Assembly: GCA_903935195.1 (NCBI GenBank)
Contig: CAIZQW010000287.1
Location: 1-63,841, forward strand
Direction: 5' to 3'
From: an uncultured bacterium
Lineage (GTDB): Bacteria; Verrucomicrobiota; Kiritimatiellia; RFP12; UBA1067
DNA: 63,841 bases
The notes beneath the pieces are model-generated. The model was not told where the DNA came from. It was given only the letters and a program-made list of their open reading frames with translations, and searched no databases. Made by a program: the position numbers and the translations under genes. This document shows, piece by piece, positions 2,507-63,823 of the stretch (positions within the stretch are counted from its first letter, which is position 1; every line of letters begins with the position of its first letter).

Positions 2507-2540
2507 GTCGGACAGGTCGGACAAGTCAGACAGGTCAGAC
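2507..2540. repeat. 9-bp tandem repeat GTCRGACAR, about 3.8 copies, followed by CTTTTTT
   Basis: Read directly: gtcggacag gtcggacaa gtcagacag gtcagac. It lies in the larC-to-CBM9 spacer. Confidence 0.9.
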
Positions 2541-2552
2541 CTTTTTTCCTGG

Positions 2553-3776
2553 TTATTTCGGCCAAACTTGCCTAACGCTCACGCCATGAGCCTTTGCCAA
2601 GGCTTCACAGGCATCATGCTCTGGCGAGCGCGTAATGACTTCGCCCTTGTAAAGCCCTACCTTGACCGGGATCTTTCCATACGGTGTCTCGAGCTGCTCA
2701 AAACGACGCTCCAGCACCTCGCGCTGGACAGGATAATAGCGAATCCCAAAGGTCGTTGTACCTCTGAACATCACTTCCCGCAAAGCCGCAGCGCTGGCTT
2801 CAGTCGCCAGCACGCTTAAGAGAATGGCGGTACGCCCCTTCTTCATCACAATCGGCGTCTGCCAGACATCCAAGGCCCCCTTCTCCAGCAAGACCGGGAC
2901 CAGCGAGGCAATCCATTCCGGATTGCAATCATCCAAGTTAGCCTCCAGTACCAGCAGGGCTTCGCCTGCTGGAAACTTGAAACTGGAAACTTGAAACTCG
3001 TCATTTGCCTCCGCCATCAGCGTGGCGCGCAGGACATTCGGACGGCGTTGTAAGGTTCGCTGGCCAAAACCGAAGCCGCTCTTCTCAATGACAGTCTCAT
3101 CCGGTACGCGCTCCAAGGTCTGGGTCCAGACACGCAAGAGTGCTGCCCCTGTCGGGGTTACCAGCTCAAACGGTTCGTCGGTCTGCATGACGCGCATTCC
3201 TTGAAGAAGCTCTTGCGTGGCTGGGGCAGGATTGGGCATCTGACCATGGGAGCAGGAAATCGTCCCAACACCCGCCGGAAGCGGACCGCAACTCACACCA
3301 CACACGCCCAACTGCTCTAACGCAAGGCACGCGCCAACAATATCGGCCACAGAGTCCCAGGCACCCACTTCATGGAAGTGAATCTTCTCAAGCGACGTGT
3401 TGTGAATCTTAGCCTCCGCCTCACCCAAGGCACGAAAGACACTCACCGCCAACCCCCGACTCGCCTCTGAGAGTGGCGCCCCTGCCAACAGGGCCTCAAT
3501 CTCCTTTAGTCCACGGTGCGCATGTTCCTGATGATGTGCATCTCGCCACTCGCCACTTTTAACTTTCAAGTTTTCACTTTTAACTTCGACTGTCATCCTA
3601 ACACCATTGAGGCCGGCATCCGAAACTGGCTCGCATCGAAGGTGTAATTTCTCAGGAAAGAACGCATTCAGGGTTTTCTCAATGGCTTGAAGATCTGCGC
3701 CGAGAACAGCCAACGCCGAGAGGATCATGTCACCACTGGCACCGCCTACACTATCAAAACGAAGGTATTTTTTCAT
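2553..3776 (-). CDS. larC: Nickel-pincer cofactor biosynthesis protein LarC (nickel insertion cyclometallase, DUF111)
   Basis: From ORF 2553..3836. Evidence is the MKKYLRFDSVGGASGDMILSAL N-terminus, the His-rich WRDAHHQEHAHRG stretch and the C-terminal LEANLDDCNPEW domain. Start set to 3776, giving an ATGA overlap with the stop of the upstream gene. Confidence 0.85.
   Translation of the reverse strand: MKKYLRFDSVGGASGDMILSALAVLGADLQAIEKTLNAFFPEKLHLRCEPVSDAGLNGVRMTVEVKSENLKVKSGEWRDAHHQEHAHRGLKEIEALLAGAPLSEASRGLAVSVFRALGEAEAKIHNTSLEKIHFHEVGAWDSVADIVGACLALEQLGVCGVSCGPLPAGVGTISCSHGQMPNPAPATQELLQGMRVMQTDEPFELVTPTGAALLRVWTQTLERVPDETVIEKSGFGFGQRTLQRRPNVLRATLMAEANDEFQVSSFKFPAGEALLVLEANLDDCNPEWIASLVPVLLEKGALDVWQTPIVMKKGRTAILLSVLATEASAAALREVMFRGTTTFGIRYYPVQREVLERRFEQLETPYGKIPVKVGLYKGEVITRSPEHDACEALAKAHGVSVRQVWPK
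2971..2998. repeat. Perfect 14-bp tandem duplication (GGAAACTTGAAACT x2) inside larC
   Basis: Read directly. It encodes EFQVSSFKFP, with the two copies read in different frames. An inverted 12/14 relative, AACTTTCAAGTTTTC, lies at 3561-3575. Confidence 0.9.
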
Positions 3777-6700
3777 GGCAGCAGCTTTTTCCAGACACGG
3801 AGCAACTCGGACATTCCCCAGGCCTGCGCCACACAACCCCGCGCAAGATGGGGCGCATCGCCATCGCAGATTTCAGGTGTATGACAGAGGCAACCTCGGT
3901 TAATCAGTTCAAGCGAGGAGCTGAGCAAGGAGAGGCCGGTCTCCCGTGCCTCCTCGCCATAAACCTTAACCAACGCTTCAACATAGAGCGGGAAGGGCCA
4001 CGTCCAGGCTGTTCCATTGTGATAAGCAGGTTTTCGACGGGTATCCTCATCTCCAAGATAATGCCCTTGGTAGGGATGATGGGGATCATTCAACAGGACA
4101 CCGTCGCGCAGAACAGGCAGCGCCATCTTGACTGGTCTATCGGCTAGACTTCGGATCGCGCCTGGCACCAACAAACCTTCGCAAGCGCGGAGAATATCCC
4201 GTTCCATCTCTGGGTTGTGTAGCACATCAAGGGTCACAGCCAACAATTGATTCGGCCGGAGCGTATCTTCGGGCAGCGCATCTTTTGCAGGAACTCCTGA
4301 TTGTGCCCGCAGGCAGTCCGCGAGCCACCCTTCGGGCATCATAAAATAACGTCGCACAGAATCCGTCGCACGTTCAGCTAGCGTGACCCACGAAAGGTCG
4401 ATCGTATGCGCCACGCTTTGGAGGGCCGCAATCCACAAGGCTTGGATATCGATCGGATATCCCTCGCGTGGCGTGGCTGCTGGATAGTTTGTATCCATCC
4501 AGGTATAGTGCGGTGGACTGTAGATCAGGCCACTCTCCGGATCCATGCGGATGCCATTGGGCGTACCGTCACGATAGTGCGAGAGGATCGAGAGCAAGAC
4601 CTCGCGCAAGGGGCGTGTCCCACAAAGCATATTCAGAACACGGTCATCATCCTTCATGGCCTTCATCAAATCCCCAGCAGCCACACAGAGCCACAACGGG
4701 GCGTCGGAGGTCTCGCGATTGGCGTCATCCTCGCCGCGAATCATATTGGGCAAGGTGCCCGCCTTTTCAAAACGTGCAAACTCACGCAAGATATTCAATG
4801 CCGCATCGTGGCGTCCAGCCGCAATCAGACCGCGCAATGCAATCAGGGTGTCGCGACCCCAATCCAGAAACCAAGGGTACCCCGCAATGACCGTGCTCAG
4901 CGCATCGCGCCGGACCACATAGAGCGATAAGGCATCCGCCACGCCCTCGGCCAAGGGCATCTCCCGGCTGATGGCGGGCTTTTCCGCAGCACCGTGCGAG
5001 GGCTTCTGGGCACTGGCCATGGTCCCTTCATCATGACGCCAGGCGGAGAGCGTTGAAACATCGCCCCCTTTAAGCGGCAAACCGAACCAACCCGGACTAA
5101 AGAGATCGCCGGAACCGTCGAGCCCCCGCTCTGCCTCTTCCGGGTGAGGCACAAGGTAATGCCAAGCCTGTTCGCTCGAAAAATGTCCATGCGACACCTC
5201 CATGGAGAGTGTCTCATGGGCGGCGGGAGAGAAGGTGAAACCTTTAATCTGTGACCGTATGGCAGCAGGCCAGGCTGTCTCAGGTCCTGTGTACGCCTTG
5301 GTGGTCTCATGGAAACTCCGCCATTCAATATCCGGACGCAGAATCACGGAGACCTCATCGTGCGCCTTTAACGCCTCCCCGTGCACATGGCGCATGATCA
5401 CCAGATTGACGCGATTGGCATCCTTCTCGATTTCCAGACGGAAGCTCAAGGGAACCCACTGCCCCATGCCACACGGCACCGTGAAGAACCATTCGACAAA
5501 ACGGCCCGCGGGATCAGCATCAAAATAGGTCAAACAACTCTTGTTGATCTCCTGCGAGTAGCCTCGATAGTTGAGCCATGCGCGACACCGTGTCCAAAAG
5601 ATCCGTTTATCCACAGGGACTGTTGGATGAGAATTGACCGCAAGCAAGCAATCATACTGGCTACGGAGTTCGCCCCAGGCAATTCGCACCTGCGACATGG
5701 CGCCTGCGCCATTGGACAGAACAGAGAGATAGGTGCCATCCATCTCGCGAATCTGGCGGCCCATGAGGCGTGTCACCATGCAGGCACGTTCTCCGGGAGG
5801 CAAGAGCAAGACCGTGGATTCATGCCGCTGGATGCCCGATGAGAGATATGCAATGGTGTGCAACGTGCGCTGTTCAGCACAGGTATTATCACCTGCGTAG
5901 GGCGGAGGGGCAAGAAAGGCGCACCACTGTCCATTCTTCAACTGCACAGACGTTTCCATACAGAGGGTGTGGTCTCCCTCTTTCAGCGTTGCCATAAAGG
6001 CGTGTGGCGCACGCACCAAAAGCAAATGCCCTTGCGGAATCATCACCTGCCGGCGTGTATCCTCCGGCCAGGTCCATGTTGTACAACGAGGCAAGCCTCC
6101 TGGCGTACGAGCACAGAAAAGCAAGGGATCTTCAATCAAAGCCTCTCCCAAAGCATCTGGATCTGTCTCTTCCGCAAGCGCAATAGCCTGATCTTCTGAC
6201 AGAGCCAATTTAACCTTCATGGCCATCAGGTTACGCCGCCGATTGGAAATGCTCTGAGGCTCGGTGACGACCGGATCACCCAGAACTGTGTTCAAATATT
6301 CCAGGTCTCCTTCGTCCGTCGTCAGACAGATCACCTGTCCGGAAGACAAGGTCACATTCGTGGCATGGAGGTGATGATGAGTTCCCGTCAACAGATCAAT
6401 CATGCGCCCGGGCTTGAACGCCTCCTGATCCCAGCGAGCGGTCACAGGCTGGTGACAATCCAAATTCACGAGAATCAGAAGCGAGGCCCCCTCGCCTGGG
6501 GCGAGTCCACGCAAGAGCGCTAAGAAGGATCCCTCCCCCTGCTGGATCATGCGCAGATGCGACGTACTCCCAAAGGCGGGATGGGTGGCGAGTAAGGTTG
6601 TGAGGCGCAAAAGCTCTTGTATTTGATTTTCGTGTGCCCCCCAATTGAGTGCAGAAGCCCCATGGACATCAATCCGCTCAGAGGCAAACCACTCCACACC

Positions 6701-8041
6701 ATTGGCCATCCCAAAGGCACCCTGATGTGAGAGCAACGCCGAAAGAGCCGTGCGCATGCGCGCAAAGGTCGGTCCCCCTCGTGCGGCGAGACGCATATTG
6801 TCGTGCGTCTCTGCAAAGTGGATCAGCGGCCCGCATTTTTCAGCCATGGCAATGGCCTGCGGCAAATACCATTCGATGGCGGAGCGGTCATCCGTCTGGA
6901 AGAGTTCCGAGTAGGCCCAGTTTAGATGAGACTCCGAGAGAAGTCGCTCCGTGACCTGCACACTGCCACCCAGACCTTCGAGCAGGAAGATGCAATCGGG
7001 ATACTCTTCCCGGACACGTGCCACGATGTAAGTCCACGTCTCCACGGGAATCATATATCCAGCATCACATCGAAAGCCATCAACGCCTTGCCGGCACCAG
7101 TAGAGAAAGACATTTGCCATATAGGCGCGCAATCGCGGATCATTGTAATCCAACTCCACAAGATCCGCCCAGATCACCCCCCAGGCCCCTGGAGAGACAA
7201 ACTCGCCATCAGGTTTGCGATGATACCAGTCCGGATGATGGGTCTGAAGCGTCGACGCCCAGCCCGTATGGTTCGCAGGCAGATCGAGATAGAGATGACC
7301 CGAACGACTATGGACCGCATCCACCAACTCCCGGAACTGGTCAAGGGGCGTGGCATGGGTATCAAACTCCGCGAGGGCCGGATCCACCGAAAGAAAATCA
7401 AGCGCTGCAAAGGGGGACCCGTAACGCCCCATACGCGCAAAGATCGTCGGGGTCGGATGGATCGGAAGGAGTTGCACGATACGGAAACGCATCGTCTGCA
7501 TGATGTGGTCCAGCTGACGGACCACGTTTCGGAAGGTGCCCGAGGGAGGAATGACCACATAACCAGCGTCATCGAGCGCTTTTTCATGCTCCTGCGTTTC
7601 GGGACGACTCGGATTCCGTTGTAATGCCGCGCCAAACTGTCGGACAAAGATCGTGTACATCGTGTTCGCAACAGCCGTGTGAGCAGGCTCAACCTTAATC
7701 TGAAGATTTTCCCCCTCTGGCCATTGCGGGAGGTGTTTGCCGTGCTCAAAGAAACAGGCCTTGCCTGAGAAGATGCCGACCTCTGTCAGCGGGATGCGCA
7801 CCGAGAAACAGCCAGGCGCATTCTCATTCATCGGGATGTCATGCCAATCCCGAGCGAGGGGTGCCTCGCCAGACTCGGTATGAGCAATAATCTCCTTGCG
7901 ACGGATTGAGGCGCGACCGATATTGGTCCGGAAGACCGCGCGGCCCTTGGGCGCGTTGTCGAACCGTAGCGTGATCTCGAGAAGATCACCCGCCCACTTT
8001 AAGATAAAATCTCCCGGCCGCGGATACTGTTGCATAGTCAC
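3773..8041 (-). CDS. Glycogen-debranching-type enzyme: N-terminal GH13 alpha-amylase-family domain fused to C-terminal amylo-alpha-1,6-glucosidase (GDE_C/GH133-like) domain
   Basis: 1422-aa ORF. GH13 regions are present: YLDLPANHTGW (I), GFRCDAGYM (II), FLLEGLGG (III) and FAETHDN (IV). The C-terminal half carries GYPWFLDWGRDTLIALRGL, the hallmark of GDE_C. Confidence 0.8.
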   Translation of the reverse strand: MTMQQYPRPGDFILKWAGDLLEITLRFDNAPKGRAVFRTNIGRASIRRKEIIAHTESGEAPLARDWHDIPMNENAPGCFSVRIPLTEVGIFSGKACFFEHGKHLPQWPEGENLQIKVEPAHTAVANTMYTIFVRQFGAALQRNPSRPETQEHEKALDDAGYVVIPPSGTFRNVVRQLDHIMQTMRFRIVQLLPIHPTPTIFARMGRYGSPFAALDFLSVDPALAEFDTHATPLDQFRELVDAVHSRSGHLYLDLPANHTGWASTLQTHHPDWYHRKPDGEFVSPGAWGVIWADLVELDYNDPRLRAYMANVFLYWCRQGVDGFRCDAGYMIPVETWTYIVARVREEYPDCIFLLEGLGGSVQVTERLLSESHLNWAYSELFQTDDRSAIEWYLPQAIAMAEKCGPLIHFAETHDNMRLAARGGPTFARMRTALSALLSHQGAFGMANGVEWFASERIDVHGASALNWGAHENQIQELLRLTTLLATHPAFGSTSHLRMIQQGEGSFLALLRGLAPGEGASLLILVNLDCHQPVTARWDQEAFKPGRMIDLLTGTHHHLHATNVTLSSGQVICLTTDEGDLEYLNTVLGDPVVTEPQSISNRRRNLMAMKVKLALSEDQAIALAEETDPDALGEALIEDPLLFCARTPGGLPRCTTWTWPEDTRRQVMIPQGHLLLVRAPHAFMATLKEGDHTLCMETSVQLKNGQWCAFLAPPPYAGDNTCAEQRTLHTIAYLSSGIQRHESTVLLLPPGERACMVTRLMGRQIREMDGTYLSVLSNGAGAMSQVRIAWGELRSQYDCLLAVNSHPTVPVDKRIFWTRCRAWLNYRGYSQEINKSCLTYFDADPAGRFVEWFFTVPCGMGQWVPLSFRLEIEKDANRVNLVIMRHVHGEALKAHDEVSVILRPDIEWRSFHETTKAYTGPETAWPAAIRSQIKGFTFSPAAHETLSMEVSHGHFSSEQAWHYLVPHPEEAERGLDGSGDLFSPGWFGLPLKGGDVSTLSAWRHDEGTMASAQKPSHGAAEKPAISREMPLAEGVADALSLYVVRRDALSTVIAGYPWFLDWGRDTLIALRGLIAAGRHDAALNILREFARFEKAGTLPNMIRGEDDANRETSDAPLWLCVAAGDLMKAMKDDDRVLNMLCGTRPLREVLLSILSHYRDGTPNGIRMDPESGLIYSPPHYTWMDTNYPAATPREGYPIDIQALWIAALQSVAHTIDLSWVTLAERATDSVRRYFMMPEGWLADCLRAQSGVPAKDALPEDTLRPNQLLAVTLDVLHNPEMERDILRACEGLLVPGAIRSLADRPVKMALPVLRDGVLLNDPHHPYQGHYLGDEDTRRKPAYHNGTAWTWPFPLYVEALVKVYGEEARETGLSLLSSSLELINRGCLCHTPEICDGDAPHLARGCVAQAWGMSELLRVWKKLLP

Positions 8042-8154: not shown

Positions 8155-8184
8155 AACGCCGAAGGGTGTGTCTCCTTCGGCGTT
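8155..8184 (-). terminator. GC-rich hairpin with a T-run on the minus strand (candidate intrinsic terminator)
   Basis: AACGCCGAAGG (8155-8165) pairs with CCTTCGGCGTT (8174-8184) around an 8-nt loop. On the minus strand it is followed by TTGTTATTTT. Confidence 0.5.
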
Positions 8185-8203
8185 CGTCCTGTGTAACACA
8201 GGA

Positions 8204-8261
8204 GTGTGGTGTAATTTATATAATTTGTGTGTGTGTGTGGTGTATATCTAGTTGTGGTGTG
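8204..8261. repeat. TG-rich word repeats (GTGTGGTGT x3) including a (TG)7 microsatellite at 8226-8239
   Basis: GTGTGGTGTA occurs at 8204-8213 and 8235-8244, and TGTGGTGTG at 8253-8261. The perfect palindrome CCTGTGT-A-ACACAGG lies at 8188-8202. Confidence 0.85.
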
Positions 8262-14445: not shown

Positions 14446-14588
14446 GTCTGGCTTTTGTCTTCTATCCTTTGGGTCTTCTAGTCTTCAGGTCTCTGCGTCC
14501 TCGTCTTCTCTGCAATAATCCAGAGTATTTACACGCTTGAGGACCCAAAGACTTTAAGACCTCAAGACGCAAAAAAAGACGCTAAGAC
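14446..14588. repeat. Word element: 5x GTCTT on the left arm and 5x AAGAC on the right arm
   Basis: GTCTT or GTCT at 14457, 14473, 14481, 14489 and 14503. AAGAC at 14548, 14556, 14564, 14576 and 14584. TTTGGGTC (14468-14475) is complementary to GACCCAAA (14542-14549). The element fills the argS-mlaE spacer. Confidence 0.85.
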
Positions 14589-14592
14589 CTTC

Positions 14593-19207: not shown

Positions 19208-19261
19208 TCCTTATTTTAAAAAATGAAATTTTATTATAACCGAAAAAACAGAGATAAGAGA

Positions 19262-19354
19262 AGTTCTAAAATGATAAAGTTCTAAAGTTGTATTTTACTT
19301 TAGAACTCCCTAGCGCGCCGTAGCTTTAGCGAAGGCGGCTCGAACTTTAGAACT
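19262..19354. repeat. Word element: nested inverted repeats of AGTTCTAAAG around a GC-rich core
   Basis: AGTTCTAAA at 19262-19270, AGTTCTAAAG at 19278-19287, CTTTAGAACT at 19298-19307 and CTTTAGAACT at 19345-19354. The core CGCCGTAGCTTTAGCGAAGGCGG lies at 19316-19338. Confidence 0.9.
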
Positions 19355-19360
19355 TGCTTT

Positions 19361-28563: not shown

Positions 28564-28574
28564 GACAGAGGACT

Positions 28575-28660
28575 GAGGTCAGAGGGCAGAGGTCAGAGGG
28601 TGCGGGGGTTAACTCACGCGCTTCCCGAGCTGTACGCGCTACCCGGGCTATCCGACCTCT
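28575..28660. repeat. Word element: GAGGTCAGAGGG x2 (period 14), a G-rich core, and an inverted partial word CCGACCTCT
   Basis: Words at 28575-28586 and 28589-28600. Core AGAGGGTGCGGGGGTT at 28595-28610. CCGACCTCT at 28652-28660. The element fills the convergent spacer between the lipoprotein and sulfatase genes. Confidence 0.85.
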
Positions 28661-35955: not shown

Positions 35956-35965
35956 TACTGCGCAT

Positions 35966-36913: not shown

Positions 36914-36974
36914 AATTTTTATACAGAACCGTTAGTAACCCGCGATCGGCAAGCCGCATTTTGTTCATTCACTT

Positions 36975-37043: not shown

Positions 37044-37095
37044 GGGGGTAAAAAGAGGTGAAATAACTTGATGGGGCTTCTTGCCTTCCGCAGTA

Positions 37096-39030
37096 TTATT
37101 TTGATCGAGTAAGAATATTTGTTACACTCGGTGACTTCATAAGTGTACCCAGTGAGGGGTTCAGTTTCAGTGCTTTTTCAAAGTGCGGTTGACTTGCTGC
37201 AATCGCACCTGTTTGAGAGAGCGCAACAGCAAGGTAAAAATAACTTTCAGCATGTGAAGGATTAAGTTTGCAAGACTCTTGATAGTGTGCAATCGCTCCT
37301 TGCATATCACCCTGGTTAAGACATGAATTTCCCAAATTGAAACTGTACATGCCGAGGTTGTAGGTTGCCATTGTAGATGCCGGCAGTGAGGGTGGAAGGT
37401 TCGTAATAACTCGATAGTCCGCCATTGCCTTTTCGATATCACCTTTCTTGATATAGACGGAGGCGCGATTGCCATACGCGGCACAATCTTTTGGATTGTT
37501 GGTTATGACCTTTGAGAAATATTCGAGTGCTGCATCTTCACGCCCACTTATTGCATCGTCCAGTGCCTCGTAAGTGGACAGCAAAGAAACGTTACCTTCC
37601 GTTCGCAATGATGTGTTCAGTCGCATCACTTCCTTTAAATCCCGAGCTGCCTGACTATATTTACTTTCTTTAGCAAAAGCTAAACTTCGCGCGATATATG
37701 CTTGTTCCATGTCTGGTCGCCTAGCAATAGCTTTATTAAATTCAAAAATTGCATTGCTAATAGAATTTTCGTTAAATAACGCCACACCTTTACTGTAGTA
37801 CGGCCATTCATTTGTATAGCCTAATAGAATTGCCTGATCGAAATCCCGTCGCGCTTCACTATATCGGTCCAACTCGCTCAATACTACTCCCCTCTCGTAT
37901 ATCAGACTTGCTTTGTTAGTGCCTGAGAGGGAAATGGCCTTAGAATAATTGGTGAGTGCTTCGTCTTTACGACCAAGGCTTTGAAGACATTGAGCCATAT
38001 GGGCATACGTTAAGGGATCGTCAGGCAGTAACGAAAGTGCCTTCAAGCTGTCTTGATAGGCATCTTGTAAACGGCCTTTCATTAACCGTATGCCGGTTCG
38101 GTTGCCATAAGCTACGCCAAGAGATGGATTCATTTGAATTGCACGTGTTAATTCTCTTTCTGCCGAATCAAAGTCCCCCGCCAAAATCAAACTGTTCGCA
38201 TTTGTAACTCTATAAGCTCCCGCGATCGGTGTGGTGCTCATTGAACCCAGCATGTGCATTGTTCCAGGGCCAAGTGACCTTATTCCCATTGCATCAAACC
38301 TTGGGAATTCGAGTCCAGATGAACCATCCTCAAGCATTAAACTTGCTGGAGGCGCGTTTGTGAAAAAAGAAACCGAAGAAAGGAAGTAATGTTCGCCTGG
38401 CGGCAAAGTTTTAAATGATTGATTACGGATACGAAATCCGGCATTCGCTTTTGGCGGAAGATGTGAAATTGTTAGCCAAAAAGCCTCATGATCTGTGGTG
38501 TCTCGTCCATGCATAACCGTTCCGTGAAATGCAATGAGTGCCTGATTAAATGGATCGCCAGAAATTGGTTGGGGCATCGCTGCGTTTGACGGTACATCAA
38601 TCATCTCCACCCCTACATCATTATTTGTCAATGAAAGTGTTGAAGAGCTGAGTTGAAGCTTAACGGTTACCTGATAAAGATCCACCTCGCCAATATTTCG
38701 GATAAAGAAGTTGTTTATGGTCTTTTTGGTGCCCAAACCGAGATCGATTCGCGTAGACGATAGGACTATGACTTCTTTAGTCTTTGGGAAATAGTAACTA
38801 CGTAGACCCAGTGTATCGTTCCAAAAACCAATGACAAGCGGAATCATAGTAAAAAACATGAACCAAAAATATTTCAAAAACCGAGTTTTTTGGGATATGG
38901 GTTGTTGCTCAAATGGTGTTGATGTCGGAGCGGGCACGGGCGTTTTGTGCGGCGCTTTCAAATGAACCTTCGGAACCCATTTTTTCCGTTTTTTCTTTTT
39001 GTTTTTGCTCATTTGTTGCGCAACTTTCAC
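37096..39030 (-). CDS. Membrane-anchored TPR-repeat protein
   Basis: 644 aa. It has a Lys-rich N-terminus and a TM helix (FLKYFWFMFFTMIPLVIGFW). An unknown domain of about 230 aa follows, then about 10 TPR-like repeats (AYGNR..., AESYFYLAVAL...). Confidence 0.75.
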   Translation of the reverse strand: MKVAQQMSKNKKKKRKKWVPKVHLKAPHKTPVPAPTSTPFEQQPISQKTRFLKYFWFMFFTMIPLVIGFWNDTLGLRSYYFPKTKEVIVLSSTRIDLGLGTKKTINNFFIRNIGEVDLYQVTVKLQLSSSTLSLTNNDVGVEMIDVPSNAAMPQPISGDPFNQALIAFHGTVMHGRDTTDHEAFWLTISHLPPKANAGFRIRNQSFKTLPPGEHYFLSSVSFFTNAPPASLMLEDGSSGLEFPRFDAMGIRSLGPGTMHMLGSMSTTPIAGAYRVTNANSLILAGDFDSAERELTRAIQMNPSLGVAYGNRTGIRLMKGRLQDAYQDSLKALSLLPDDPLTYAHMAQCLQSLGRKDEALTNYSKAISLSGTNKASLIYERGVVLSELDRYSEARRDFDQAILLGYTNEWPYYSKGVALFNENSISNAIFEFNKAIARRPDMEQAYIARSLAFAKESKYSQAARDLKEVMRLNTSLRTEGNVSLLSTYEALDDAISGREDAALEYFSKVITNNPKDCAAYGNRASVYIKKGDIEKAMADYRVITNLPPSLPASTMATYNLGMYSFNLGNSCLNQGDMQGAIAHYQESCKLNPSHAESYFYLAVALSQTGAIAASQPHFEKALKLNPSLGTLMKSPSVTNILTRSK

Positions 39031-39085
39031 AAGCGATACTTATGGATTGAAACTGCTAGCCTAATCCTCCGATGTAACACGTTTC

Positions 39086-41578
39086 TCACTCCCCCCAAAC
39101 CCGGGCGAGGGTAGTTTGGATTTTCTTCTCGAAGCGGGTGATGAGGTCGCGGTTGGCGTTGACAAGGGCTTGCTCAGCTTCAATCTCCGCAACAATTGCA
39201 CGCTGCGTCTCGATAGGAGGGAGGGGGATTTTCTGTTCCCGAACAAAGGAGAGATTCGCCATGCGAAACTTGCCTTCGCCTAACTTCAAAAACTCTGGAT
39301 AAAGTTGCTGTGCAGCATGAAATAGATATACCGGCTCCAGCACCTCCCGTGATTTGGGATAAATACCGGCGATGTTCTGATTCGTCGTGGATTCAAACTT
39401 CAAGATGGCGGTCTTGCCAATCGTTGCTCCTACCAACGCTATCAAAGTGGTATCTTTTGGAAGGATCTTAGCGGCAGAGTTCTTCAAGCCAGCATCGGTG
39501 ATGAACTCCTCAGCTTGTGTCACCTCTCCATCTTTACACACCGTTGAGCCAACCCAAGGAATGTGCCCGTTCCAGTAGGAATCCTCGGCACGGCTGGGCG
39601 TACCTCCTGAGCGGACCTCGCAAATTTTCTCAAGTGGCTCCATCGGCCACGTTGGATCGACGGGGATGTGGGGGCGGTAGTTGTTGAGGACGGTGCGGGC
39701 ACCGTTGATGATTTTCTGGTAGCCCTCAATCTCTGCCACGATCTCTTTCTGGATTTCAAGTGGAGGGAGGGGAATTTGGAACTGTTCTACATATCCCTTC
39801 GGCACTCGTTGTAGCCCACCTGTCCCAGTCATTTGTGCAATAGCAGATTCCCTGAAAGTCGAATGCATTAAGCAAAAGTAAATGTATTCGGCAAGAACGC
39901 AGTTGCTTGGTCGAAAAACATAAAATTCACTTGATCCAAAGCCCGTGCTGTTAACTAAGCCTTTGGCAATACCCGCTTTACCATTTTCAAAACAAGGTGT
40001 GACCTTTGCGAGCAGCACATCACCATCAGCAAAATAGGTATAACTTGCGCCCAACTCGCTGATTTTACGGGTTTCCTTGGCCTGAAACATTATTCTGTTT
40101 TCACCAATATCACTCATGGGCACAAAGGAAACAAGCGTGTCGGGCGGCAAGGTGAGCCCTTCGCGTTTTGGCGGGTTGATCGTGCAAACCGTTGCGAGCG
40201 GAACATGAGGGAAATGGGCACTGGATGCAGCCCCTTCCCGATACCGTTCTCCGCTCAGATTGTAGTCGCCATTGGTGGCGATCTTTTCTTTGGGAATGAC
40301 AAGACCTGTGGTTAGCGTGAGTTCGTCTGCGGACTGTCCACGGCGGAGGGCTTGGAGATAGGTATGTAGTTCGGCTTTGACTTGCGGCAGATCGTTCTTG
40401 GTGATTTCACGGCGCTGGGCGCCGAGGCCGAAGCCGTCATTTTCGACCTTGAAGAAGGCGATGGTTTTTGCCTTTTTAGCAAGGGTCTTATCGAGGATGA
40501 GGATCGATGTCTTAACGCCTGAGTAGGGATTGAAGCAACCTGCCGGAAGGGATATAACCGCGACAAGGGAGTTTTCGACGAGCATCTTGCGCAGGCTCTT
40601 GTAAGCATCCTGGCTCTGGAAGATGATGCCTTCAGGGACGATGATGCCGGCGCGTCCGTTCGGCGTGAGGTGTTCAGCCATGTAGTCCACGAAAAGGACT
40701 TCGCTGCGCTTGGCCTGGATGGAGAAGCGCTTGTGGGGCTTGATACCACCCTTTGGCGACATGAAGGGCGGGTTGGCTAAAATTACATCGGCGAAGTCGT
40801 TCCAGCGCTCTTCGGAGGTGAGGGTGTCGTACTCGTAGATATGCGGGGCGGCGAAGCCGTGCAGGTAGAGGTTCACGAGCGAGAGGCGCACCATATCAGG
40901 CGAGATGTCGTAGCCCTTGATATTTTCAGCGAGGCGACCACGCTCTTCAGGGGTGAGGGAGGAGTGGCCTTTGGCGTGGGTGTTGGCCTTGAGGATGTGC
41001 TTGTAGGCGGAGATGAGGAATCCAGCCGTGCCACAGGCGGGATCGAGGATGGTCTCGTTCTTCTTGGGATCAAGGACTTCGACCATGAAATCAATAATAT
41101 GGCGCGGGGTGCGGAACTGTCCAGCGTCGCCTTGGGAACCAAGGACACTGAGAAGGTATTCAAAGGCATCGCCGAGGCGTTCGCTGTGGTCGTAGCTGAA
41201 TTCATCAATGATCTTGAGGAACGCCTTGAGCGTCTCGGGGTCGCGATAGGGCAGATAGGCGTTCTTGAAGATATCGCGGAAGAGCAGCGGGATGCCGGGA
41301 TTTGCGGGCATCTTGTCGATAGCCTCTGCGTAAAGGGCGAGGGTCTCGTGTCCGCCCAGCCCAGAACGCATGAGCTTGGCCCAACCGTAGCGGGCGAAGT
41401 CGCCTGCGAAAAACTTACGCTTGCCGCCCAGCTCCGCAGATTCGGCATCCATGTCGTCCATGAATTTGTAAATCAGGGCGATGGTGATCTGTTCGACTTG
41501 GGATTTGGGGTCTGGTACTTTGCCCACAAGGATGTCGCGGGCGGAGTCGATGCGGCGCTTGGTCTCGGTGTCTAACAT
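39086..41578 (-). CDS. hsdM: Type I restriction-modification methyltransferase fused to a specificity subunit (HsdM-HsdS)
   Basis: N6-adenine MTase motifs are present (DPACGTAGFL, ILANPPFMSP). Two TRD regions follow, each closed by an HsdS conserved helix: PLPPLEIQKEIVAEIEGYQK and PLPPIETQRAIVAEIEAEQA. Confidence 0.85.
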   Translation of the reverse strand: MLDTETKRRIDSARDILVGKVPDPKSQVEQITIALIYKFMDDMDAESAELGGKRKFFAGDFARYGWAKLMRSGLGGHETLALYAEAIDKMPANPGIPLLFRDIFKNAYLPYRDPETLKAFLKIIDEFSYDHSERLGDAFEYLLSVLGSQGDAGQFRTPRHIIDFMVEVLDPKKNETILDPACGTAGFLISAYKHILKANTHAKGHSSLTPEERGRLAENIKGYDISPDMVRLSLVNLYLHGFAAPHIYEYDTLTSEERWNDFADVILANPPFMSPKGGIKPHKRFSIQAKRSEVLFVDYMAEHLTPNGRAGIIVPEGIIFQSQDAYKSLRKMLVENSLVAVISLPAGCFNPYSGVKTSILILDKTLAKKAKTIAFFKVENDGFGLGAQRREITKNDLPQVKAELHTYLQALRRGQSADELTLTTGLVIPKEKIATNGDYNLSGERYREGAASSAHFPHVPLATVCTINPPKREGLTLPPDTLVSFVPMSDIGENRIMFQAKETRKISELGASYTYFADGDVLLAKVTPCFENGKAGIAKGLVNSTGFGSSEFYVFRPSNCVLAEYIYFCLMHSTFRESAIAQMTGTGGLQRVPKGYVEQFQIPLPPLEIQKEIVAEIEGYQKIINGARTVLNNYRPHIPVDPTWPMEPLEKICEVRSGGTPSRAEDSYWNGHIPWVGSTVCKDGEVTQAEEFITDAGLKNSAAKILPKDTTLIALVGATIGKTAILKFESTTNQNIAGIYPKSREVLEPVYLFHAAQQLYPEFLKLGEGKFRMANLSFVREQKIPLPPIETQRAIVAEIEAEQALVNANRDLITRFEKKIQTTLARVWGE

Positions 41579-41584
41579 GGTTTC

Positions 41585-44125
41585 CTATGCTACGAATTGA
41601 TTGAGGCTGACGTAGTCCTTGATGTATTCGGGGATGAGATCGCGATACTTTTCAGGGACGGCCTTGAAGTCGCGTGTGGAAAAAACAGGATTCGTGGCCA
41701 GTTCGGTGAAGTCGTGGCTTTCGATGATGAGGCGGATCTGATCGCTGATAATGTAGGCCTTGAAATAGGTCTTGAGGGCCGGGATAGCCTCAGCTTCTTC
41801 GGGCTTGATGTCGGAGACGAACTTGGCGAACTCCTCTTCCAGTAGCTCGTCCTTGGACTTGAAACGGGGGATGAGTCCGAAGATTTTTTCGAGGATCTCG
41901 CGCAGCGTCAGTCGGCGGTCCACAGTCGCCGCCCTGCGCAATTTGTCGAGCGTGTAGTACTGCTCCGGCTTGTCGAAGACCTCTTGGTTGACGTACTCAA
42001 TGACACGATCCCATTGGCCCGCTTCAACGGCCTTGGCGATGGTTGCGTTTTCTCGGATGGACGATTCGAATTTCGCGAAGAACATGCGGTCGATCTTCAT
42101 GCCCTCGTAGCCGACGGCTTCTTCTTTGATAGATGAGATGATGTCCGAACCCAGATGCTCATACGCTTCTGGCTTGGCTGGCGGTTCTTCGCCACCGCCA
42201 CCGTCCTTGCCTTTGCCTGTGGGACGCGGCAGGACGAGCACTTCGTCGTAGTTAAAATCCTCTTCGAAATATTCGCAGTTACCAAAGAAGTCAAAAAGCT
42301 TGAACGCCTCTTTATGTGGCTTGACGACATTTTCCTTGAGTTCCACATCAAAAAGCTGGTCCCGAAAATCGTGTGTCCGGGTTCCGCGTCCCTTGATCTG
42401 GATGAAATCAGTCGGCGAGAAGATCGGACGGAAAAGGCCGAGGTTGAGGATGTCCGGGCAGTCATACCCTGTGGTCATCATGCCGACCGTGACGCAGACG
42501 CGCGCTTTGCTGGTCTTGTAGGCGGACAAGAAGTTGGCAGAGCCCAGGAGATTGTTGTTGCTAAAATTGATAGTGAACTGCTGGGCGTCTGGAATCTGAG
42601 AGGTGACCTGGATGGCAAAGTCTGACTGGTATTTCCCTGGAAACATTTTTTCCGCCATGAGATTCAGGATGTTGGCCAGTTTAGCCGCATGGTTCTGGCT
42701 GACGGCATAGATGATGGACTTGCCGATCTCACCGCTGACAGGATCGCGCAGCGCGTTTTCAAGAAAGGTCTTGCAGAAGAGTCCATTGGTGGCATCGGAA
42801 AAGAAGCGCTTTTCAAATTCGCGCTGCTTGTAAGCCTCTTCCTGGTCCTCGCCGGTGTCATCCGTGAAGGTAACGACAAAGCCTTCCTCTGAGAGCAGTT
42901 GCGTGGTGATCTCCGTCCGGGCATCCACGACAACGGGGTTGATCAGAAAGCCATCCTTCACACCGTCGAGCAATGAATATCTGAATGTGGGTTGGCTCTT
43001 CTCGCAACCGAAGGTGCGGTAGGTATCGAGAAGCAGGCGGCGCTCAGCTTCGCGCGGATCGCGAGTTGTCGGGGCGACCTTGTCGAAATGCTTGAGATAG
43101 TCGCGGGGTGTCGCGGTAAGTCCCAGCTTGTAGCCGATGAAATAGTCAAACACCGCGCGGGCATTTCCTCCGATCGAGCGGTGCGCTTCGTCAGAAATGA
43201 CGAGGTCAAAGTCGGTTGGCGAGAAGAGCTTCTGGTACTTGTTGTTGAAGAGCAGGGACTGGACTGTGGTGACGACGACCTCCGCCCGCCGCCAGTCATC
43301 GCGGTTCTCCTTGTAGATGACGGTCTGGAAATCAGCGGACAAAAGAGCAGAGAAGGCCTTTTTGGCTTGGTCTTCCAATTCAAGACGGTCTACCAGAAAG
43401 AGTACGCGCCGGACATTGCCCGAACGTAGAAAGAGCTTTATGATGGCGGCGGCTGTCAGCGTCTTGCCCGTACCAGTGGCCATTTCGAAAAGGAACCGGT
43501 CGTGTCCATCTTTGACTGCGGCCTGCAAGCCCTGGACCGCTTTCATCTGATAGGGACGAAGGAAGCGGAGTTTATTGGCCTGAATATAGCCCGGCCGTTC
43601 CGTCTCCTTCTTCCACGCCGCATCTGACTGATAAAGAGGCCGCTGGGTCAGGACGATATAATCGGCCCCCACCTGTTCTGTGACCAGACGGTTCGCATCA
43701 GGGGTGACCTTATGGTATCCAATGACCGACTCCGGCGTTGGAAAAGAGGTGATGATGTAGGGGCTGCCGCGCTCCAGATCCCAAAAGTAGTGGAGGTTCC
43801 CGTTTGAGAGGATGACAAAGCGGCAATTCTGAGAACGGGCATATTTTCGCGCTTGTTCTTTGCCCACGAACGGATTTTTGTTTTCCGCCTTAGCTTCAAG
43901 AACAATGAGCGGAAAGCCTTTTGCATCGAGGAGGAGAAAGTCAATGAACCCTTTTGAAACCTTTTCAAAGTCATTACCGAGTTCGTCGAGCGCATTCTGT
44001 TTCAGTGTGACACTGGGTTCGAGTTGGATATTGGCGGGGGCGTCACCCTTAGGAAAAAAACGCCAACCTGCAGCTTCCAGCAGGTTGTTAATCTTAATAC
44101 GGGCGTTTGCTTCTTTTTCCGACAA
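41585..44125 (-). CDS. hsdR: Type I restriction enzyme R subunit (HsdR family: PD-(D/E)xK nuclease plus SF2 helicase)
   Basis: N-terminal IDFLLLD...VLEAKA nuclease motif, Walker A MATGTGKT, DEAH box ISDEAHRS, and an EcoEI_R_C-like C-terminus. Confidence 0.85.
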   Translation of the reverse strand: MSEKEANARIKINNLLEAAGWRFFPKGDAPANIQLEPSVTLKQNALDELGNDFEKVSKGFIDFLLLDAKGFPLIVLEAKAENKNPFVGKEQARKYARSQNCRFVILSNGNLHYFWDLERGSPYIITSFPTPESVIGYHKVTPDANRLVTEQVGADYIVLTQRPLYQSDAAWKKETERPGYIQANKLRFLRPYQMKAVQGLQAAVKDGHDRFLFEMATGTGKTLTAAAIIKLFLRSGNVRRVLFLVDRLELEDQAKKAFSALLSADFQTVIYKENRDDWRRAEVVVTTVQSLLFNNKYQKLFSPTDFDLVISDEAHRSIGGNARAVFDYFIGYKLGLTATPRDYLKHFDKVAPTTRDPREAERRLLLDTYRTFGCEKSQPTFRYSLLDGVKDGFLINPVVVDARTEITTQLLSEEGFVVTFTDDTGEDQEEAYKQREFEKRFFSDATNGLFCKTFLENALRDPVSGEIGKSIIYAVSQNHAAKLANILNLMAEKMFPGKYQSDFAIQVTSQIPDAQQFTINFSNNNLLGSANFLSAYKTSKARVCVTVGMMTTGYDCPDILNLGLFRPIFSPTDFIQIKGRGTRTHDFRDQLFDVELKENVVKPHKEAFKLFDFFGNCEYFEEDFNYDEVLVLPRPTGKGKDGGGGEEPPAKPEAYEHLGSDIISSIKEEAVGYEGMKIDRMFFAKFESSIRENATIAKAVEAGQWDRVIEYVNQEVFDKPEQYYTLDKLRRAATVDRRLTLREILEKIFGLIPRFKSKDELLEEEFAKFVSDIKPEEAEAIPALKTYFKAYIISDQIRLIIESHDFTELATNPVFSTRDFKAVPEKYRDLIPEYIKDYVSLNQFVA

Positions 44126-44287
44126 TCAGACTCCTTGTTCAACAGACGGTTAGCTAGGCAACATCATTCAATGTTTCAGCATTTTACATCTTCTGTCTTT
44201 TTTGAACAAGGGAAAAGAATTGAAGGAGCTGTTTCAACTCCATTGGATGGAGCTCGGCGAGATCGCAGGTTATCAGATGGCCTATGT

Positions 44288-50719: not shown

Positions 50720-50803
50720 GTCTTCTTTCTCCTTCTTGCCCTGAAGGGCCTCTCGTTTGTTAATGTTTGTTCCTGTTACTTAAGCATCGCTGTGGGGTAT
50801 ATC

Positions 50804-50818
50804 GCACAACTTATGCCA
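50804..50818 (-). promoter_or_regulatory. Candidate sigma-54 promoter for the porin gene
   Basis: The minus strand reads TTGGCATAAGTTGTGCGAT. GG-N10-GC is preserved, with two deviations from TGGCAC-N5-TTGC. It lies about 85 nt upstream of ATG 50719. Confidence 0.45.
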
Positions 50819-50979
50819 ATCTCTTAAAATCTGTTTTTTTGTTAAAAACCATGTATTTATTTGTTTATTTTGATCTTTTTTATTTTTTTATTCCATTTAT
50901 GTAAACAAATGATCGTCATAATGAACATTAATTTCTAAATAAATCACCCGAGTTAATCCTTTATTTCATTGTCTCTCTG

Positions 50980-51120
50980 CAGGTGGCGGGGTTGTCTATA
51001 ACTTCAACGTTAAGAGTTGGGCGTTCAGCGTTAAGCGTTTAACGTTTAACTCTTAATTTAAGAAGTTACTCCTCATTTTATTCCTAGGCCCCCAGGCGGC
51101 GGGCTAGTCTGTGCCTTCAA
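50980..51120. repeat. Word element: 28-nt direct repeat pair flanking a hairpin built from TTAAGAGTT and GCGTT words
   Basis: CAGGTGGCGGGGTTGTCTATAACTTCAA (50980-51007) matches CAGGCGGCGGGCTAGTCTGTGCCTTCAA (51093-51120) at 22/28. TTAAGAGTT (51010-51018) is complementary to AACTCTTAA (51048-51056). GCGTT/CGTT tandem words lie between them. Confidence 0.85.
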
Positions 51121-51199
51121 GTTTGCCCTAATTTATTCTGCCGGACGCTTCCATTCCAAAAAGGAGTATGTTATTATAAAAAATAAATGGAGATCACGT

Positions 51200-59786: not shown

Positions 59787-59812
59787 GTCCGTCAAATAGA
59801 CTTAGAACCATC

Positions 59813-59856
59813 AAGCGTTGGATGTTCTTACCAAACATCCAACGCTTCGTCTTTTC
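59813..59856. terminator. Bidirectional intrinsic terminator between convergent maeB and trpC
   Basis: A 14-bp stem, AAGCGTTGGATGTT (59813-59826) pairing with AACATCCAACGCTT (59834-59847), has a 7-nt loop and is followed by CGTCTTTTC. Confidence 0.75.
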
Positions 59857-62219: not shown

Positions 62220-63614
62220 CTATTTCATGCGCTCCGGGACTTCAGCCTTGCCAATGACGGTCTTCATGATGGCCGCCTTGTTCTGGCACTCCTGATACTC
62301 GCTCTGCGGGACAGAGTCGAAGACAATGCCCGCGCCCGCCTGCCAATGTAGCTTGCCGTCCTTGATCCAAAGGCTGCGAATCGTAATACCCATGTCGAGG
62401 CTGACTGTATCCTTGTCGAGTCCCAACCAGCCGATACTGCCGGCATAGGGTCCGCGCGGACGCTTCTCCGTCTCCGCAATAATCTCCATCGCCCGCACTT
62501 TCGGCGCACCGCTCACGGTTCCTGCCGGGAAGGTCGCGCTGATCACATCCACGGCATCCAGATTAGGATTGAGCTGGGCTGTCACCCGCGAGGTCAAGTG
62601 CATCACATGCGAGAAGCGCTCCACCTCCATGAGCCGTTCGACCTTCACCGTGCCGGGACGCGCCAGGCGTCCGAGATCATTACGTCCCAGGTCCACCAAC
62701 ATGAGATGCTCGGCACGCTCCTTGGGGTCCTGCAGCAGGTCCATGGCGAGCTTGGCATCCTCCTCCTCGGTCTTGCCGCGTTTCCGCGTGCCTGCAATGG
62801 GCGAGAGCTGGAGCTGGTTCGCTGAACAACGGATCAGCAGTTCCGGCGAAGAGCCCATCAGCGTCGTCTTCGGCAGATCCATGAAGAAGAGATAGGGCGA
62901 CGGATTGATGCGCCGCAGGCGACGATAGACCGCAAAAGGTTCGCCCTGGAAAGAGGTTTCAAAGTGCGTGGAGAGCACGACCTGAATCGCCTCGCCCTGA
63001 CGCAACTGCTCCTTGATGAACTCCACCCGCTTCATATACTCCTCAGGCGTTGAACTCTCGGTCACATCGCCCACTTGGAAGGTTTCGCTCTCCAAGGCAG
63101 GCGCTGGCTTTTCAAGCGTGTCTGTCAGGACCAACTCCGCGACGCGGTTGTAAACATGGTCAAAGATCACCACTCGGCTCGGCAGGATGAGGCAGGCTTC
63201 AGCCTCCTCTGCAGGAATCACCTTAGCCAACCGCTTGAGCGTCAGCCCAGCAATGCCATAACCGAGGTACCCATAGAGTCCACGGGTAATCGCCGGCTGG
63301 TTCGCGAAAGCAGGCGCAGTCTCAATGGTGATCGCCTTCATGACCTCGCGCAGTCCATCCAGGAAAGGCAGGCCTTCTAAAGATGACAGCGAAGCGAGCC
63401 GCTCATCCTTGATCTCCAGATGCAATTTTCCTGCAACGCAGTTGACCGACAACAGGCAACCTGTCGCAAGAATGCTGTACTTGCCCCAGCGACCGTCAAC
63501 CTCCGCGCTCTCCAGCAGGATGCCCTGCGGATTGCGGAGAAAGAGACTGATCGGCGTATCGGTGTCACCCTCCAGGTAACGCCCCTGCTGCGATAATATG
63601 ATCGGTGTTATCAT
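62220..63614 (-). CDS. trpE: Anthranilate synthase component I
   Basis: Chorismate-binding motifs FPAGTVSGAPKVRAMEII and GPYAGSIGW. Confidence 0.92.
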   Translation of the reverse strand: MITPIILSQQGRYLEGDTDTPISLFLRNPQGILLESAEVDGRWGKYSILATGCLLSVNCVAGKLHLEIKDERLASLSSLEGLPFLDGLREVMKAITIETAPAFANQPAITRGLYGYLGYGIAGLTLKRLAKVIPAEEAEACLILPSRVVIFDHVYNRVAELVLTDTLEKPAPALESETFQVGDVTESSTPEEYMKRVEFIKEQLRQGEAIQVVLSTHFETSFQGEPFAVYRRLRRINPSPYLFFMDLPKTTLMGSSPELLIRCSANQLQLSPIAGTRKRGKTEEEDAKLAMDLLQDPKERAEHLMLVDLGRNDLGRLARPGTVKVERLMEVERFSHVMHLTSRVTAQLNPNLDAVDVISATFPAGTVSGAPKVRAMEIIAETEKRPRGPYAGSIGWLGLDKDTVSLDMGITIRSLWIKDGKLHWQAGAGIVFDSVPQSEYQECQNKAAIMKTVIGKAEVPERMK

Positions 63615-63712
63615 GGTAAATCCTTGTTACTTCAAATAGAAACAGCGCTCACTATAACTGTTTCTACATGTAGAGTCAATGCGTTTCTTTAAAAAAATGT
63701 AGCCGTTTCTTT

Positions 63713-63823
63713 CTCACAGAGCCCACAGAGTTCACAGAGGAAACCAATTTCCACCAGGATACATCTTTCTCTGTGCCCTCTGCCTGTCCACCGTTTTATC
63801 CGCCGTAGCCTTGGCGAAGGAGG
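63713..63823. repeat. Word element: CACAGAG x3 (period 9), inverted CTCTGTG-type words, then a core shared with locus 19316
   Basis: ctcacagag/cccacagag/ttcacagag at 63713-63739. ctctgtgccctctgcctgtcc at 63769-63789. The core CGCCGTAGCCTTGGCGAAGGAGG at 63801-63823 matches 19316-19338 at 20/23. Confidence 0.85.

Follow-up and report, generated by a model that had tools for sequence, protein, structure and literature searches.

The intergenic spacers of the DNA analyzed here hold two layers of short repeats. This DNA, a stretch of 63,841 nucleotides (the window), is the entire contig C287 of G000, a metagenome-assembled genome (MAG) of 3.63 Mb in 466 contigs with 53.7% GC. In the first layer, tandem arrays of 7- to 9-nt words, often in inverted pairs, make up the arms of hairpin cassettes, some of which carry a gene of the PF05635 family. 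The second layer is an independent hairpin element of 30 or 31 nt, which has exact ends and inserts into the word arms and into its own copies. We consider it probable that the spacers are mosaics of these cassettes and this element, that both layers are selfish or semi-selfish, and that the element moves as single-stranded DNA by means of an HUH-type enzyme; its mode of movement we infer from the form and the landing sites of its copies. A preliminary description of the window had instead read eight intergenic loci as a single family, akin to repetitive extragenic palindromes (REPs) or miniature inverted-repeat transposable elements (MITEs), in which a word unique to each locus stands beside a common G-rich core and the whole might act as a terminator, insulator, or binding platform.

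The likeness between positions 19316 to 19338 and 63801 to 63823, on which that description had drawn, turned out to mark a true family. At three or fewer mismatches, the core pattern CGSCGTAGCYTTRGCGAAGSCGG has 70 matches in G000, compared with none in three genomes simulated with a third-order Markov model, so that the enrichment over simulated genomes proposed as a check was found. By crude calls of open reading frames (ORFs), 52 of the 70 copies are intergenic. Among 63 to 67 distinct copies, the 23-nt core has a 4-bp stem that leads through a GTA/GAA internal loop and a GC/GC step to a YTTR tetraloop. The whole element has a 4-nt 5' tail (CYTG), two further stem pairs outside the 23-mer that make a 6-bp stem, a one-base bulge between the stem halves in 38 copies, and an invariant GTA/GAA internal loop. 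Stem pair 3:20 shows compensatory change, being C-G in 33 copies and G-C in 21 to 25; the second of the outer pairs is T-A in 26, G-C in 23, and C-G in 10; and pair 2:21 is G-C, G-T, or A-T. Paired cells amounted to 95%, versus 86.8 ± 1.0% in shuffles (reached in 0 of 500) and 12 to 50% in slid controls, and the minimum-energy fold of the 31-nt element is the same structure, ....((.((((.(.((....)).).)))))). One core variant, CGGCGTAGCCTTAGCGAAGCCGG, holds both of the heptamers GCGTAGC and GCGAAGC, which form very stable DNA mini-hairpins. No Rfam family matched at gathering score across the window, and permissive scans of both core loci returned a sole match at chance level (E = 1); a full-text literature search with the core sequence gave no match. 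A sigma-54 promoter reading of TGGCAC/TGGCGC at the left junction was rejected by eye: neither the spacing nor the -12 element agrees with such a promoter, and TGGC is missing from one subfamily.

The ends of the element were located by a boundary scan, in which x bases to the left and y bases to the right of the 23-mer were removed and the joined 9+9-nt flanks were sought elsewhere in the genome. Joined flanks recur when 31 nt (11 to 12 copies) or 30 nt (3 to 7 copies) are taken out, while other offsets give 0 to 2, which defines a unit of 7 (or 6) + 23 + 1 nt. Its first bases are CYTG or, in one subfamily, TTTA. All window features are given here on the forward strand. The 31-nt copy at 19309 to 19339 consists of CCTAGCG, the core CGCCGTAGCTTTAGCGAAGGCGG, and a final C, and exactly these 31 nt are missing from the orthologous site of two congeners, G001 and G004, which read ACTTTAGAACT joined directly to CTCGAACTTTAGAAC. 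These belong to five congeners compared (G001 to G005), of which G001 and G004 are 89 to 90% identical overall and G002 is a complete genome; spacers were compared at 85 to 91% identity. Neither the empty site nor the scan of joined flanks revealed a target-site duplication.

The element also inserts into itself. Eight complete copies lie between the T and the A of the loop GTAG (GT^AG) of a host copy, and a ninth is found at the end of the window, where a 30-nt copy at 63795 to 63824 (TTTATC, the core CGCCGTAGCCTTGGCGAAGGAGG, and A) splits at GT^AG a host element at 63783 to 63841 (CCTGTCCACCGT^AGGCGTATCCGCGAAGG..), which is truncated, as the contig ends inside the repeat. The joined flanks of this nested copy, GTCCACCGT+AGGCGTATC, recur elsewhere solely with 30 nt removed, and the copy has a full twin at C315:5378. 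GTAG is nearly invariant, is placed in the internal loop of the hairpin, and serves as the insertion site of the nested copies. Across the 70 copies the bases of the right flank are TG in 29, TC in 15, and AG in 14. Copies occur as singlets: among 77, just 3 pairs of neighbors are less than 400 nt apart, and all of these are direct.

Tandem arrays, called with Tandem Repeats Finder (TRF), make up the other layer. The spacers of G000 (370 kb) hold 943 intergenic arrays, 616 of them with a period of 7 to 9 nt, whereas three second-order Markov simulations of intergenic DNA gave 43 to 44, of which 19 to 25 had this period; the excess over chance is about 22-fold. About half of all arrays fall in the roughly 10% of the DNA that is non-coding. 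The words are not private to a locus, as had been proposed, but recur genome-wide in a shared vocabulary: arrays with AGAACTTT number 32 and those of the GGAATRTT family about 100, and GCGCCTCT is found in 19 and GCCTCTGT in 17, with GCGCCTCT, GCCTCTGT, AAGTGTCAGT, and CTGCCAA each in 13 to 19. A clustered inverted partner lies within 150 nt of 235 of 944 arrays, compared with 21 in a complement-only control; this clustered test replaced a first, looser one (354 versus 169 in the control). In the window, word hairpins fold with z scores of -4.0 (19258 to 19356), -2.8 (51000 to 51062), -2.7 (14450 to 14592), and -2.0 (63713 to 63790).

Inverted arrays also enclose genes. All seven clear PF05635 genes (7/7) sit tightly between inverted arrays, with one word per gene (ATAGCAG, GTGAATAGTGA, CAGTTGGCAGTAG, TGGAAACT, GATTTTA, CTTTGTCGCGAG, and AAGTGTCAGT), and gene-less arrays use these words too. 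PF05635 is the family of 23S rRNA intervening-sequence proteins, with an Avd-like four-helix bundle. The cassette on contig C33 (arms plus gene, 544 nt) is absent from G002 and G005, where almost nothing separates the flanking genes, and its site in G003 and G004 holds a gene-less hairpin of 67 to 78 nt with CACAAAGG arms. Since the empty sites in G002 and G005 are without any array, arms and gene were gained or lost together. A second cassette, on C295, is present in G000, G003, and G005, with G001 and G002 keeping a remnant of one arm only. No target duplication is evident at the C33 and C295 junctions. Spacers turn over in the window as well. At the site of the array at 2507, stop and start are 1 nt apart in G004, with no spacer, and G001 holds a module of the family found near window position 51000; the spacers at 14446 and 28575 and the right half of 50720 to 51199 hold a different mosaic in each congener, and six other window spacers are unchanged in length between congeners. 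Cassette polymorphism and spacer turnover together imply that the arrays are hairpin-cassette arms and that the cassettes are subject to gain, loss, and replacement; a solo array can be what a deletion left behind. Presence and absence between relatives, which the preliminary description had named as a test, is thus seen for the element, the cassettes, and the hairpins alike.

Alternatively, the arrays could be products of local replication slippage in hairpin-prone spacers rather than parts of mobile cassettes, with PF05635 genes and the element merely preferring such palindromic spacers as landing sites. Unit number and unit variants do differ between congeners, solo arrays are common, and ordinary genes (hisB, queC, rluA-like, and tatC) are also found between inverted arrays of a single word; these non-PF05635 ORFs, considered as cassette genes, turned out to be ordinary housekeeping genes. 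However, the C33 sites of G002 and G005 lack not only the gene but every trace of an array, the same composite word module occurs at unrelated loci in different species (the 2507 site of G001 resembles the window near 51000), and slippage alone cannot account for a vocabulary common to hundreds of loci. We regard an origin by slippage alone as unlikely.

The two layers meet more often than random placement predicts. Of 70 copies of the element, 29 have an array no more than 20 nt away, whereas random spacer positions give a mean of 12.6 and a maximum of 21, and 25 of the 70 have a 7-mer common to both sides of the element (control mean, 4.3; maximum, 11). The remaining 41 copies outlie any array by more than 20 nt. 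The copy at 19309 to 19339 stands in a gene-less word hairpin, whose left arm (19262 to 19289; AGTTCTAAAG-type units, called by TRF) pairs with a right arm (19297 to 19356; ACTTTAGAAC units, with the word AGAACTTT of the 32 arrays) that is split by the element, as seen in the congener comparison and in the fold. The arms are also present in G001, G004, and G002.

Outside G000 the element has a patchy distribution in its phylum and occurs in at least four other phyla. Among 301 genomes sampled across the phylum, 63 have matches at one or fewer mismatches, compared with 2 matches in total for the reversed pattern. Copy number at this threshold ranges from 0 to 57, with 42 in G000, 57 in G002, and 40 in the genome G134; most other genera of the same family have 0 to 2. 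An exact 22-mer is found in MAGs labelled Planctomycetales, Pirellulales, Phycisphaerae, Kiritimatiellaeota, Victivallis, Nitrospirales, Spirochaetia, Bdellovibrionales, and Desulfohalobiaceae. In these MAGs the element is embedded in different tandem words (ATTGCGG, CATCCAG, GTAAGGC, and TGTAACT), whose phase, by eye, is restored by taking out 31 nt. The Nitrospirales contig CAZSTS010000013.1 (L029, L034) carries two copies 1.7 kb apart, each within arrays of several words (GTAAGGC, CTATCGT, TAGTAGC, and CATCCAG), and thus repeats the layering of G000 in a different phylum. Uneven copy numbers and the spread across phyla suggest amplification bursts and horizontal transfer. The closest public relatives of G000 are MAGs labelled Akkermansia or Verrucomicrobiae, at 79 to 90% nucleotide identity, and on this ground we assign G000 to Verrucomicrobiota. 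One of them, CAMBQV01 (L001, L003, L004, L007, L018, L024), is 79 to 90% identical to G000 and has the same words and the same element; its label, 'Akkermansia muciniphila', looks wrong, because genomes of the genus in the search set are 2.4 to 6.1 Mb and repeat-rich.

Where the same word flanks a copy on both sides, as in those 25 copies, conversion between like arrays could copy the core. It could then be argued that the core is a functional site under selection, such as a protein-binding or processing signal, that is spread passively by gene conversion between like-word arrays, and the invariance of the loop beside a covarying stem would fit such a site. Yet copies are nested at GT^AG, others lie in many word families and in non-array DNA, the 13 copies listed out of the 40 in G134 are all identical, and the element crosses phyla. 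Moreover, G001 and G004 have retained the same neighbor genes around the empty site, so no fixed need for the core at the 19309 locus is evident. A selected site spread by conversion seems to us highly improbable.

How, then, do the eight loci of the preliminary description relate to these layers? In BLAST searches they gave the following numbers of high-scoring segment pairs (HSPs) elsewhere in the genome: 62 for 63713, 41 for 19262, 14 for 50980, 13 for 28575, 5 for 14446, 1 to 2 for 2507, and none for 8155 and 35047. Six of the eight are part of genome-wide repeat families, while 8155 and 35047 are unique, ordinary spacers; tandem or inverted words, said to be present at all eight, were found by TRF and in the sequence at seven (2507, 14446, 19262, 28575, 35047, 50980, and 63713), the exception being 8155. 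The match between 50980 to 51007 and 51093 to 51120 was borne out as a true second family, GGCGGCGGGCTTGTCTATAACTTCA plus AAGTTACTCC..TTTATTCC, the 14 HSPs of this locus being spread over 11 contigs. Two shorter likenesses that had been treated as additional cores were dropped as chance level: AGGTGGCGG is a common 9-mer with 60 matches in the genome, and AGGGTGCGGGGGTT has no relative there at one or fewer mismatches.

A single REP/MITE-like family of word-plus-core units is not what these data describe, although a dispersed mobile repeat system does fill the spacers and a hairpin core is common to several loci. Such a family would be consistent with the existence of a common core, with the frequent adjacency of words and core, and with the hairpin folds of several loci (z between -2 and -4). 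On the other hand, its uniqueness of words is already contradicted by the vocabulary found genome-wide, most arrays (about 940) are without a core just as 41 of 70 cores are without an array within 20 nt, and the core inserts as a separate 31-nt unit, which makes arrays and core separate layers; in addition, two of the listed loci are unique. Two traits of REPs are also missing: the cores do not form inverted doublets, and none flanks a gene for a REP-associated tyrosine transposase (RAYT) among the RAYT-like genes inspected. Nor do the cores show any strand bias relative to neighboring genes (10 on the same strand, 16 on the opposite one). We consider the one-family account very unlikely. The statement that no RAYT gene is present was correct for the window, but the genome at large contains at least 15 RAYT-like HUH genes.

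For the element itself, we propose movement as single-stranded DNA, in which a trans-acting HUH/Y1 enzyme (RAYT- or IS200-like) would recognize the folded hairpin and insertion would target transiently single-stranded DNA, namely hairpin-prone word arms and the loops of folded copies. Slippage and hairpin-mediated deletion may make the word arms longer or shorter, and effects on transcripts, for example RNase III cuts in long stems as in rRNA intervening sequences, may be a by-product. An HUH/Y1-type reaction fits best because the ends are exact, duplications are absent, the hairpin is small and has invariant unpaired bases, and the landing sites are of the single-stranded kind.

The element could also be imagined to move via RNA, as a stable hairpin with a loop-E-like GUA/GAA loop that is reverse-transcribed into DNA with the Avd-like PF05635 protein as a cofactor. 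Avd is a cofactor of the reverse transcriptase in diversity-generating retroelements and is presumably a PF05635 member. G000 has two reverse-transcriptase genes, the element sits in the arms of PF05635 cassettes, stem pairs compatible with G.U are frequent, and the invariant GUA/GAA together with GC/GC and the tetraloop appears to resemble an RNA motif. The lack of any bias toward the transcribed strand (the same counts of 10 and 16) and of any Rfam match nevertheless argue against this route, and we know of no case in which either a reverse transcriptase or a PF05635 protein moves such an element. An RNA route is in our view improbable.

Several observations weigh against the mosaic reading and its HUH-type mechanism. 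Folding energy of the element alone, which is short and GC-rich, is no better than that of shuffles, and the frequent G.T pairs of the stem, which make up 11 of 63 at pair 2:21, fit RNA better than DNA. The left flank shows no conserved target tetranucleotide in the 70 copies, the sole bias being on the right. The empty-site evidence for the core comes from one orthologous site, gene positions come from crude longest-ORF calls, and G000 is a fragmented MAG, its 466 contigs being broken at repeats. PF05635 genes, moreover, might prefer to land in pre-existing palindromic arrays rather than travel with their arms. Finally, no enzyme could be linked to the element by inspecting the flanks of the RAYT-like genes and by scoring the co-occurrence of two RAYT-like clades with the core across genomes. 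No RAYT-like gene inspected has a core on both sides, and at the flanks of the six detected by Pfam there are inverted repeats of other kinds. The C106-type clade, scored in the 301 genomes, is absent from the high-copy genomes G134, G146, G261, and G065 and present in eight core-free genomes, and the C158-type clade is absent from G002, G134, and G146; for both, co-occurrence with the core fails.

RAYT as the mobilizer was consequently rejected as far as the C106 and C158 clades and the six Pfam-found genes are concerned. The RAYT-like HUH genes of G000 fall into four or more divergent groups and all match NF047646 below the cut-off. About ten are paralogues of 310 to 335 amino acids that combine an HUH N terminus with an extra conserved C-terminal domain (C106:416-1423, C461:3346-4326, and genes on C330, C286, C7, C246, C162, C92, and C227); PF01797 (Pfam) picked up only that on C286, weakly, and the others were found by tblastn. 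The C106-type gene has two cores within 340 nt, on one side only, and apart from the C106/C461 pair nothing convincing emerged as a recurrent neighbor gene of the cores. Other RAYT-like HUH genes have their own inverted repeats: GGGGTCGTAATTTGACAT flanks the pair C240:7310-8362 and C240:10172-11239, ATGTCGCTTTGAAAGCGACAT plus GGGGACAGAC flank C151:10756-11847 and C118:7813-8829, and GCGCGGAATACCGCTTGCCGCGCGCACTCCAAAA flanks C158:11533-12204. These loci are several further REP-like systems in G000. A small GIY-YIG gene (MTNFHYVYIL..) at C335:5700-6030 (minus strand) lies just downstream of a tRNA gene, with the element about 45 nt upstream of its start, and this layout is repeated in two related MAGs (L003, L021). 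As a partner of the element it was set aside, since the loci are probably orthologous and G000 has a single such gene.

It is tempting to speculate further that the element is a cross-phylum 'nano-transposon', below the size of any element with a known mechanism, that recognizes single-stranded GT^AG in its own loop as well as PF05635-cassette arms and is moved by an enzyme possibly tied to PF05635 cassettes. We put this forward only tentatively, as one possibility.

Among described repeats, the closest to the element that we know of are SDR4-6, a group of small dispersed repeats (SDRs) from Nostocaceae. These Nostoc repeats, as Elhai et al. (2008, Genome Res 18:1484) reportedly found, are ORF-less, 21 to 27 nt long, and embedded within tandem heptamer repeats, with a common hairpin that shows compensatory changes. 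Both SDR4-6 and our element are ORF-less, measure tens of nucleotides, form a hairpin with compensatory changes, and are found inside tandem arrays of short units as well as inside other repeats; both are presumed mobile, with no known enzyme. They differ in length (30/31 nt versus 21 to 27 nt) and probably also in sequence, and the element described here targets its own loop at GT^AG and is present in four or more phyla besides Verrucomicrobiota. According to PMC5861425, SDRs are reported only in Nostocaceae; the work of Elhai et al. is cited there and in PMC3116915.

With REPs and REPINs, for which criteria and the RAYT (Y1 HUH) transposases have been laid out by Bertels and Rainey in 2011 (PMC3116915), the element shares the nature of a short, extragenic, multicopy hairpin repeat with an imperfect palindrome in the range of about 20 to 40 nt, a GTAG tetranucleotide, the presence of RAYT-like genes in the genome, and the lack of target duplication. 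In contrast to them, it occurs as singlets rather than inverted doublets, flanks no RAYT-like gene, has a stem of just 6 bp, and carries GTAG inside the loop rather than 5' of the hairpin, and two RAYT clades fail to co-occur with it. Unlike classical cut-and-paste MITEs, neither the element nor the cassettes show target duplications, even though the word hairpins do have inverted arms. The 'peel and paste' elements IS200/IS605 resemble it in their hairpin-recognized ends, exact insertion, and absence of target duplication, and a preference for single-stranded targets like theirs would explain landing in loops and hairpin arms; however, the element has one hairpin instead of two different ends, no 4- to 5-nt target on its left, and no linked transposase.

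The word arrays have relatives of their own. Cyanobacterial short tandemly repeated repetitive (STRR) sequences are dispersed tandem heptamer repeats. Similar TAACTGA repeats (MacGregor 2015; PMC4679880, the text of which makes no mention of a link to PF05635 or to intervening sequences) and GGGNATC repeats (Rehm 2015; PMC4692102) have been described. All of these form short arrays of 2 to about 10 units of 7 to 9 nt that are strongly intergenic, patchy in their spread, and of unknown mechanism, as here. Whereas they feature one dominant unit, G000 has many unit families; a quarter of its arrays are in inverted pairs, PF05635 genes are bracketed, and arrays turn over between congeners. The cassettes, in turn, recall the intervening sequences (IVSs) of 23S rRNA genes, which occur in Leptospira, Coxiella, and others with an S23p/23S_rRNA_IVP ORF (PF05635). 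In both cases a small four-helix-bundle ORF lies between inverted repeats able to form a long stem, and the insertion is present or absent. The cassettes seen here, however, lie between protein-coding genes, their arms are word arrays with a different word per gene copy, and gene-less derivatives far outnumber the gene-bearing ones.

The other repeats of the window are of the same kinds. Directly next to the host element at its end is a word hairpin at 63713 to 63782, called by TRF, which consists of a CACAGAG x3 array (63713 to 63739) and an inverted copy, CTCTGTGCCCTCTG (63769 to 63782). A solo tandem array, (GTCRGACAR) x3.8, lies at 2507 to 2540 between two co-directional genes (TRF), with two related arrays elsewhere. 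The left side of the word hairpin at 14457 to 14588 is built of GTCTTC-type units and its right side of AAGAC units; the G001 spacer has other words, CATCGGRA and CTTCTG. At 28564 to 28600 there is a solo array of GAGGTCAGAGG words (TRF), with about 19 related arrays in the genome and other words (AAGTGTCAGT..) in G004, followed at 28615 to 28657 by a further small dispersed repeat (CGCGCTTCCCGAGCTGTACGCGCTACCCGGGCTATCCGACC) with three related copies on C379. The word hairpin at 51008 to 51056 (TTAAGAGTT ... GCGTTAA/AACGTTT ... AACTCTTAA) has copies on C80, C365, C424, C216, and C11, and its family also fills the 2507-site spacer of G001. It stands between two members of the second module family: a copy, GGYGGCGGGSTTGTCTATAACTTCA, at 50981 to 51007 (relatives on C296 and C54) and a module, AAGTTACTCCTC..TTTATTCC..GGCGGCGGGCT.GTCT..CTTCA, at 51063 to 51120 (relatives on C296, C449, C337, C377, and C167). 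The perfect palindrome GGTCCGGCAGCTGCCGGACC, which often adjoins the GGCGGCGGGCTTGTCTATAACTTCA family, is another dispersed module, found at C54:4384, on C106, C334, and C342, and in the G001 spacer orthologous to 50720 to 51199.

The spacer at 8155, upstream of the large ORF 3773-8041, has a GC-rich hairpin at 8157 to 8184 and, at 8200 to 8260, a GT-rich tract with a (GT)n microsatellite that differs by a few units among G000, G001, and G004. Near base-for-base identical in two congeners, the spacer has the look of an ordinary regulatory (terminator/promoter) region. Positions 31755 to 44287 have low GC (39 to 47%), contain restriction-modification and defence-type genes, and lack a counterpart in G001 or G004; they probably form a strain-specific island. 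The spacer at 59787 to 59854 measures 68 nt in G000 versus about 1189 nt in G004, indicating an insertion carried by G004.

STRR, TAACTGA, and GGGNATC repeats and the tiny Nostoc repeats have been described for decades without a mechanism, and G000 provides an unusually clean handle on such repeats, with ends exact to a single base, an empty site, and a defined self-target, GT^AG. The patchy phylogenetic distribution is sufficient for finding the enzyme through phylogenetic profiling. Word arrays are now tied to PF05635 cassettes, and Avd is, to our knowledge, the only relative in the PF05635 family that has been studied. The repeats account for the fragmentation of such MAGs into hundreds of contigs, and for the differences between close species in their spacers and possibly in operon coupling. 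If the nano-transposon reading were true, arrays, IVS-like cassettes, and nano-elements would together be a single, nested mobile ecosystem and would shape intergenic spacers in many bacterial phyla.

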